A stretch of 64,000 nt of DNA from assembly GCF_988242995.1 (NCBI RefSeq), contig NZ_OZ547043.1, one strand, 5' to 3'. Below the pieces are notes generated by a model, which saw nothing but the letters and a program-made list of their open reading frames with translations, searched no databases and was not told where the DNA came from. Numbering within the stretch: position 1 is the first letter of the stretch; every line of letters starts with the position of its first letter. The position numbers and the translations under genes were made by a program. Shown one piece after another: positions 6,674 to 7,499 of this stretch.

Positions 6674-6705
6674 AAAAAAAGGCCCCTGTTGAAATTGCAG
6701 GGGCC
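6674..6705 (-). terminator. rho-independent terminator downstream of cutC (also the expected 3' end of MicL)
   Basis: minus-strand stem ggcccctgc/gcaggggcc followed by U-tract (plus-strand A7 at 6674-6680). Confidence 0.8.
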
Positions 6706-6980
6706 TGGTACGAGCAAGCATCATATTGGGCGACATGATGCAACGGTAAAAATCATTTGGCCTGATGGCGTTCAATGATTCCTTTCATTTCAGCAACCGC
6801 CGCCCCGTCTACGACATAACGCGAATACTCGTCCGCGTGTGCATCTGATGACATAGACAATCCTTGATTACGATAACGCATCGGTGAGGCTTGCCACGCT
6901 CCCGCGGAGCTATGGACTTCCAGCACTCCGGCATCGAGGAAGTGGTGCAGGTTTTCTGCACGGACTCCTGCTCCGGCCAT
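6677..6980 (-). ncRNA. micL: MicL (RyeF) sigmaE-dependent sRNA embedded in the 3' part of cutC; known to repress lpp
   Basis: sigmaE-like promoter on minus strand (-35 GGAACTT at 7008-7014, -10-like TCCAA about 16 nt downstream) about 300 nt upstream of the cutC terminator; matches the published length and location of MicL; boundaries approximate. Confidence 0.5.
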
Positions 6981-7499
6981 AATGATTGGAGCATCACGAT
7001 GGGCAATAAGTTCCATAATTTTTGATAAACCTTGCAGTGCGTCTGATTTTTGCCCTGATGTCAGCACCCGGGCAATGCCCAATTCCGCAAGATTATTGAG
7101 TGTATTTAGAGGGTTAGCGCACATATCAAAGGCGCGATGAAAAGTCACTGCCAGCGGACCGGCAGCAGCCATTATTTTTTCCATTCGTGGCATATCGACA
7201 TTCCCGTCAACATCGAGAACGCCCGTCACCAGTCCAGGAAAACCTAATTCGCGGACCGTGCGCACATCCTCAAGAATGGCGGCAAACTCACCGTCGCTGT
7301 AGCAAAAATCACCACCGCGTGGGCGAATTATCGGATGCACAGGGATCGTCACCCGCTGGCGCACGGATTTCAGTACACCCAACGACGGCGTTAAGCCCCC
7401 CTCTTTTGGGGCTGCGCATAATTCAACTCTGTCTGCGCCGTTTTGCTGCGCCGTTAGTGCACATTCCATGCTGTAACAGCAAATTTCCAGTAATGCCAT
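6753..7499 (-). CDS. cutC: copper homeostasis protein CutC (248 aa)
   Basis: ORF track; protein recalled as CutC. Confidence 0.92.

Follow-up and report, generated by a model that had tools for sequence, protein, structure and literature searches.

A cutC locus of Escherichia coli that matches micL, the gene of a known sigma-E-dependent small RNA

Results of our analysis indicate that the minus strand of the window, i.e., of the whole 64,000-nt stretch of contig NZ_OZ547043.1 (assembly GCF_988242995.1) that was analysed, almost certainly carries the E. coli micL gene at positions 6674-7014. The feature is an already known one and nothing about it is novel: MicL was discovered and dissected in 2014, it is present in RefSeq, in EcoCyc-style annotation and in Rfam, and the knowledge of it is unchanged by our results. 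The sequence-only reading of this DNA, which had named the locus micL, was right. The locus is a textbook case of a working promoter and most of an sRNA precursor hidden within a protein-coding gene. It closes the sigma-E/Lpp feedback loop, Lpp being the most abundant protein in the cell, and it can serve as a positive control for the recovery of a nested sRNA gene from raw sequence. What is added here is the quantification of selection acting on two 5-nt promoter cores and on the 80-nt 3'UTR, together with the observation that the promoter spacer is frame-locked at 17 nt.

Identity and layout of the micL locus

The assignment of the locus to micL is based on two results that agree with each other. 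The Rfam model of MicL (RF02654) matches positions 6674..6981 of the minus strand over its full length (model positions 1-308 of 308), with a score of 370.3 bits against a gathering score of 56 and an E-value of 9e-112, and the K-12 RefSeq ncRNA gene micL (b4717) is the equivalent of positions 6674..6980 of the window. The whole window is collinear with the chromosome of K-12 MG1655, starting at 1,951,768. The 961-bp cutC-yecM stretch was found in 5425 of 5426 complete E. coli genomes, and its sequence in the window is 100% identical to that of many complete E. coli genomes, including those of strain C and ATCC 8739.

When aligned with the annotated micL of K-12, the MicL sequence of the window matches it with just three substitutions in 308 nt, which correspond to MicL nt 127, 141, and 167 (positions 6855, 6841, and 6815). 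All of them are in the coding part of MicL, while the promoter, the start region, the processed form MicL-S, and the terminator are identical to those of K-12, and the identity upstream spans the promoter from at least -79 onward. In terms of the CutC protein, one of the substitutions is synonymous, and the two others lead to A220 replacing E and to V229 replacing I. These differences are expected to have no functional effect.

Table 1. Features of the micL locus in the window
Feature	Position	Strand	Basis
cutC CDS	6753..7499	-	248 aa; ORF list and K-12 annotation
sigma-E -35 element GGAACTT	7008..7014	-	sequence; cutC codons Met162-Glu163-Leu164
promoter spacer, 17 nt, ATTGCCCATCGTGATGC	6991..7007	-	counted; codons Ile165 to Ala170
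sigma-E -10 element TCCAA	6986..6990	-	sequence; codons Ala170-Pro171-Ile172
MicL primary transcript, 308 nt	6674..6981	-	RF02654 full length; K-12 b4717
MicL-S, 80-nt processed active form	6674..6753	-	PMC4102768, bioRxiv 10.1101/341578; identical to K-12
stem-loop A (MicL-S nt 13-36)	6718..6741	-	MFE and centroid fold; 9-bp stem, 6-nt loop
lpp-pairing seed (MicL-S nt 38-49; nt 266-277 of 308)	6705..6716	-	restricted duplex; published seed region
intrinsic terminator common to cutC and MicL	6674..6706	-	fold: 9-bp stem, 9-nt loop, U7

The promoter lies within cutC, and so do the initial 228 nt of MicL, the last of which is the G of the cutC UGA stop codon. As in K-12, MicL is encoded in the 3' part of cutC on the same (sense) strand, and the two share the 3'UTR and the terminator. 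[quoted passage not shown] The earlier description of the locus as dual-function, encoding a protein and an envelope-stress sRNA, is fair, except that the part in copper homeostasis after which the gene was named is played by the RNA.

The proposed 5' ends of MicL disagree by one base: the RefSeq entry b4717 starts at A 6980 (307 nt), as compared to U 6981 in the 308-nt version. The start is placed 226 nt before the stop codon in PMC4102768, which is U 6981, and the Rfam model places it likewise. From the published start to the final U at 6674 there are 308 nt. The extent first ascribed to the feature, 6677-7014, is correct at its promoter end, but its lower bound clips 3 nt of the U-tail, as the RNA ends at 6674.

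Outside of the micL locus, certain other segments of the window were noted in the course of the analysis. The stretch 49372-53289, which corresponds to fliX, fliC, fliD, and the start of fliS, gave no megablast alignment to K-12 and presumably represents a different flagellin (H-antigen) allele. On its minus strand, just downstream of the divergent fliC and near where K-12 annotates the fliC 3'UTR-derived sRNA FliX, there is a full-length match to the Rfam family STnc490 (49944-50067, 146 bits), which would add another 3'UTR-derived sRNA to the window. The IS1H element located upstream of flhDC in K-12 (768 bp, K-12 1978503-1979270) is absent here, and the 8-bp overlap of alignment blocks at 26727-26734 is taken to be its single-copy target site; insertion of IS elements at this site is known to increase the motility of K-12 stocks. 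At 58506-58573, about 1.9 kb of the K-12 sequence (2010546-2012431), comprising yedL, the yedN pseudogene, and the intG remnant of the cryptic prophage PR-G, is shrunk to about 64 bp. Two catalogued E. coli sRNA candidates are matched by Rfam models on the plus strand, namely C0465 (20972-21049, 111.6 bits), antisense in the tar-cheW intergenic region, and ES036/CssrF (2696-2738, 45.5 bits), just after cmoB. The three tRNA genes at 39274-39573 (minus strand) are ordinary and correspond to leuZ-cysT-glyW of K-12.

The sigma-E promoter within cutC and selection on its sequence

The minus strand reads AAAAATTAT GGAACTT ATTGCCCATCGTGATGC TCCAA TCAT TATGGCCGGAGC, with both promoter elements inside the cutC frame and immediately upstream of the published start at 6981. 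The sequence-only reading had placed GGAACTT at 7008-7014 of the minus strand within cutC, which is exactly where it is, and TCCAA about 16 nt after it; the latter element is indeed present at 6990..6986, but the spacer, when counted, has 17 nt. The claimed resemblance of this pair to a sigma-E promoter holds as well, both because the composite motif is unique in the window and because its register is nearly that of micA and rybB. While GGAACTT by itself occurs in six copies in the window, which is about the chance level, a search of both strands of the 64 kb gave a single composite GGAACTT-N15-18-TCNAA; in sequences resampled from the window by a first-order Markov model, which matches its dinucleotide frequencies, 0.12 occurrences would be expected. 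The only sigma-70 match given by a consensus scanner was one weak sigma-70-like site at 7198..7171.

In PMC3326320, GGAACTT is given as the canonical sigma-E -35 motif, and variable spacer lengths are allowed, though penalised, in models of sigma-E promoters. In K-12 micA and rybB aligned on their starts, 16 nt separate GAACTT from TCTNA. The alignment of micL, rybB, and micA on annotated starts brings the -10 TCCAA of micL against TCTTA of rybB and TCTGA of micA, and the GAACT motifs and the TC of the -10 elements agree within 1 nt. The spacer of micL is 1 nt longer than those of micA and rybB, which is the kind of deviation that sigma-E models penalise. If +1 is taken as A 6980, the -35 element aligns exactly with those of micA and rybB, but the -10 element is 1 nt nearer to the start. 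The length of the micL spacer never changes, because the spacer sits in the reading frame.

The induction of K-12 MicL by sigma-E was demonstrated with the use of Northern blots and a PmicL-GFP fusion, and the strength of a micL promoter-GFP fusion covering -65..+20 was nearly that of PmicA and PrybB (PMC4102768). Synonymous mutations in the -35 and -10 elements of PmicL abolished MicL and reproduced the copper sensitivity of a cutC deletion mutant (PMC4102768). The legend describing this mutant gives just '-10C-T/-35A-G' (PMC4102768), and we infer that its -35 change is GAA to GAG, since this is the sole synonymous A-to-G option. Judging by the sequence of its promoter, micL is probably transcribed also in the strain studied here.

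Conservation of the locus was analysed with the use of 56 cutC loci from species-representative genomes, which were fetched by six peptide patterns. These patterns avoid residues 159-176, which rules out ascertainment bias as the source of the promoter conservation. The codon alignment comprised 45 Enterobacteriaceae loci, including that of the window, ranging from Escherichia to Siccibacter and from 98% to 62% in CutC identity. GGAACT and TCCAA are kept in all 45 of them (one locus has TGAACT), and GAACT and TCCAA are among the three longest invariant runs in cutC, each of 5 nt; the third, ATGTG, is unrelated. Only three of the 133 conserved degenerate columns are represented by a single codon, and two of these three are Glu163 (GAA) and Pro171 (CCA): Glu163 is never encoded by GAG, and Pro171 is encoded by CCA though four codons are possible. 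The six spacer codons vary freely between genera, including the amino acids they encode, and their number is constant.

In Morganella and Edwardsiella, similar residues (E/Q-L ... P-L) are written GAG/CAG-CTG/TTG ... CCG/CCA-CTG, and the motif is absent. Neither the promoter nor a MicL-S-like 3'UTR was found in the ten more distant cutC loci examined; the loci lacking both include those of Morganella, Edwardsiella, and Limnobaculum and three non-proteobacterial ones. The RF02654 model matched 16 of the 16 Enterobacteriaceae loci tested and none of the four outgroups. The promoter-MicL-S module is present in at least a dozen Enterobacteriaceae genera.

The mean identity of MicL-S to that of the window is 94% in 43 species-level loci, with 100% in many Citrobacter and Salmonella loci, while the corresponding values for the cutC coding sequence in the same comparison are 77% upstream of the MicL start and 74% inside MicL. 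The third-position conservation is 0.60 for the MicL-overlapping part of cutC vs. 0.62 for the rest of the gene. This pattern of identities therefore indicates that constraint acts on both promoter cores and the 80-nt 3'UTR, and not on the 228-nt leader. The promoter elements are conserved at the nucleotide level beyond the coding needs, and MicL-S is under nucleotide-level selection as well. A function of its own for the cutC-overlapping 228 nt, such as that of a second seed, a sponge, or a cis-acting element affecting cutC, seems very unlikely; the conservation of this part, no better than that of the rest of cutC, argues against it, and a weak or lineage-specific function may exist.

Three other properties of the aligned cutC loci are worth recording. 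At codons 9-10 of cutC (7470-7475, minus strand), Tyr9 is encoded by TAC in 96% and Ser10 by AGC in 100% of the 45 loci, serine having six codons; this bias may be a retrieval artefact, as the peptide EICCYSME was used to fetch the loci, or a genuine constraint may act close to the 5' end. In the cryptic Escherichia clades (loci L005-L007), identity to the window is only about 88% for the first two-thirds of cutC, 98.7% for the part inside MicL, and 100% for MicL-S; such a sharp change close to the promoter points to a breakpoint of recombination or to a sweep of the segment carrying micL. The cutC frame is interrupted in L053 (Leclercia adecarboxylata NCTC13032), L054, and L056 (Kluyvera genomosp. 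3); in L053, GGAACT...TTCCAAT is located right after the premature stop codon, and in L054, MicL-S is present further downstream. Sequencing frameshifts may be responsible for these interruptions, or micL may have outlived cutC.

Processing, termination and pairing with lpp

Downstream of the cutC stop codon, there are two hairpins followed by a U7 tract that ends at 6674. The predicted fold of MicL-S has an energy of -28.8 kcal/mol (z = -5.15), and no shuffled sequence folded as well. RNase E was shown to cut MicL in vivo and in vitro at a site positioned by two adjacent 3' stem-loops, with the aid of Hfq (Updegrove et al., 10.1101/341578), and stem-loop A was identified as an element that positions the cut (10.1101/341578). 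The processing determinants found in the window are the two conserved hairpins, the A/U-rich 5' end, and the MicL-S sequence identical to that of K-12. All 18 predicted base pairs are kept in the 19 distinct MicL-S sequences of our collection. In stem-loop A, this concerns 9 of 9 pairs, with variation to G-U alone, and in the terminator, double changes that preserve pairing affect two pairs of the stem, in Franconibacter and Siccibacter. In loci L025-L045 (e.g., those of Trabulsiella, Lelliottia, and Kosakonia), the cutC stop codon is located 2-14 nt upstream of the conserved (A/G)UUUUUACCG, which is the conserved beginning of MicL-S. Given this displacement, it is only in Escherichia, Citrobacter, and Salmonella that the RNase E site falls on the stop codon.

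The terminator has the sequence GGCCCCUGC-9 nt loop-ACAGGGGCC followed by U7, and its earlier coordinates, 6674-6705, were correct, with the G-C stem at 6705..6681 and the U-tail at 6680..6674. The U7 tail is a probable Hfq-binding 3' end; the binding of Hfq was reported for K-12 MicL (PMC4102768). A consensus terminator scanner did not report the cutC terminator, because its 9-nt loop exceeds the scanner limit of 8. The same scanner indicated four terminator-like matches inside the cutC coding region, with short and weak stems.

The region of MicL that pairs with lpp had been expected near the 5' end of the RNA. Our analysis does not confirm this, as the seed is a part of the 3'-terminal MicL-S and occupies the single-stranded linker GCUCGUACCAG between the two hairpins. 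The lpp gene is outside of the window, and the K-12 sequence of lpp was used; in 5424 of 5426 complete E. coli genomes, the 5' fragment of this gene has an identity of 99% or more. The final duplex calculation was restricted to the experimentally delimited segments and gave a duplex of -17.9 kcal/mol between MicL-S nt 37-50 and lpp +15 to +29. Its longest uninterrupted stretch of perfect pairing is that of the 7-mer GUACCAG (MicL-S nt 43-49; 6711..6705) with CUGGUAC (lpp +16-22). Unrestricted RNAduplex predictions for MicL-S or full MicL vs. lpp were dropped, since the duplexes were implausibly long and loop-ridden and differed from those of shuffled sequences with modest significance: when nt 1-50 of MicL-S were shuffled with dinucleotides preserved, 8 of the 500 shuffled sequences bound lpp as well as the original or better. 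The 7-bp perfect seed alone is not statistically striking.

[quoted passage not shown] In our collection, GTACCAG is invariant in every locus bearing the promoter. Most of the L025-L045 loci have U for C at MicL-S nt 42 (GCUUGUACCAG vs. GCUCGUACCAG).

Proposed mechanism, rival readings and relation to known sRNAs

In the proposed mechanism, sigma-E (RpoE) polymerase would bind GGAACTT-N17-TCCAA in cutC codons 162-172 upon envelope stress or in stationary phase. Transcription from 6981 (or 6980) through the last 76 cutC codons and the 3'UTR to the cutC terminator would yield the 308-nt RNA. RNase E would then cut this RNA at the cutC stop codon, with the two neighbouring 3' hairpins guiding it and Hfq assisting, and free the 80-nt MicL-S, of which the inter-hairpin linker would pair with codons 6-10 of the lpp mRNA. 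The sigma-E dependence, the start site, RNase E cleavage, Hfq binding, and lpp repression are taken from the published K-12 experiments, made on sequences to which those of the window are identical in the promoter and MicL-S.

One may ask whether the GGAACTT and TCCAA motifs are coincidental and any sRNA is merely cut from the 3'UTR of the cutC mRNA, with no internal promoter involved. The abundance of GGAACTT alone at about its chance level (six copies) and the 17-nt spacer in place of the 16 nt of micA and rybB would be compatible with such a possibility, and CpxQ and other 3'UTR sRNAs are made purely by processing (10.1101/341578), but the composite motif is expected just 0.12 times in the window. 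Moreover, the synonymous sites of both elements are frozen in 45 loci beside neighbouring codons that change their amino acids, and therefore protein coding does not explain their conservation; outgroups with similar residues choose other codons. Together with the results for K-12, in which the synonymous PmicL mutations nearly abolish both MicL and MicL-S (PMC4102768, 10.1101/341578) and the 308-nt form resists terminator exonuclease and carries a 5' triphosphate (PMC4102768, 10.1101/341578), this makes the absence of a genuine internal promoter exceedingly improbable.

It is hardly conceivable, too, that the conserved 3'UTR represents just the cutC terminator or a cis-acting stability element and not a trans regulator. 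Its 3' hairpin with the U-tail is a standard intrinsic terminator, and terminators are often conserved; here, however, the whole 80-nt segment is conserved, the single-stranded linker GUACCAG and stem-loop A among its parts (94% vs. about 74-77% for the coding sequence), whereas variation is seen in the loop of the terminator. The internal sigma-E promoter and this 3'UTR were always either both present or both absent, and the repression of lpp in trans by ectopic MicL-S and the compensatory mutations (PMC4102768) also contradict a role restricted to termination. The three substitutions relative to K-12 in the 308-nt RNA (6855, 6841, and 6815) could in turn be read as a sign that micL is present by descent, yet inactive in this strain owing to decay of its promoter or seed. 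All three are in the coding part, which is free of extra nucleotide-level constraint, while no difference from K-12 was found in the promoter (from at least -79 onward), at the start site, in MicL-S, or in the terminator, and the 961-bp stretch has 100% identical counterparts in many complete E. coli genomes. On the basis of the K-12 comparison, decay of micL in this strain was rejected, and the probability that the gene is inactive appears negligible. The reading preferred by us remains that of micL with its own sigma-E promoter and a trans-acting product.

All testable features of the locus match those of MicL of K-12 (formerly RyeF/SlrA region; b4717; RF02654; Guo et al. 2014, PMC4102768), namely, its position in cutC, the 308-nt length, the promoter, the 80-nt MicL-S, the terminator, and the lpp seed. 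The difference between the two consists in the three single-base changes that the window carries in the cutC-overlapping part of the RNA. MicL resembles MicA and RybB in its GAACT -35 and TC-containing -10 elements and in nearly the same register of these elements to +1, as well as in Hfq binding, in belonging to the sigma-E envelope-stress regulon, and in the repression of abundant outer-membrane proteins (PMC4102768). However, MicA and RybB are encoded by free-standing intergenic genes with 16-nt promoter spacers and have 31 mRNA targets between them (PMC4102768). MicL, in contrast, is nested in a coding gene, has a spacer frame-locked at 17 nt, depends on processing, and is known to act on one target only. 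With 3'UTR-derived sRNAs it shares the location of the seed and of the Hfq-binding terminator in an mRNA 3'UTR and the guidance of RNase E by two hairpins. DapZ represents the internal-promoter type of 3'UTR-derived sRNA. While CpxQ is generated by processing only and has no promoter of its own (10.1101/341578), MicL combines an internal promoter with cleavage.
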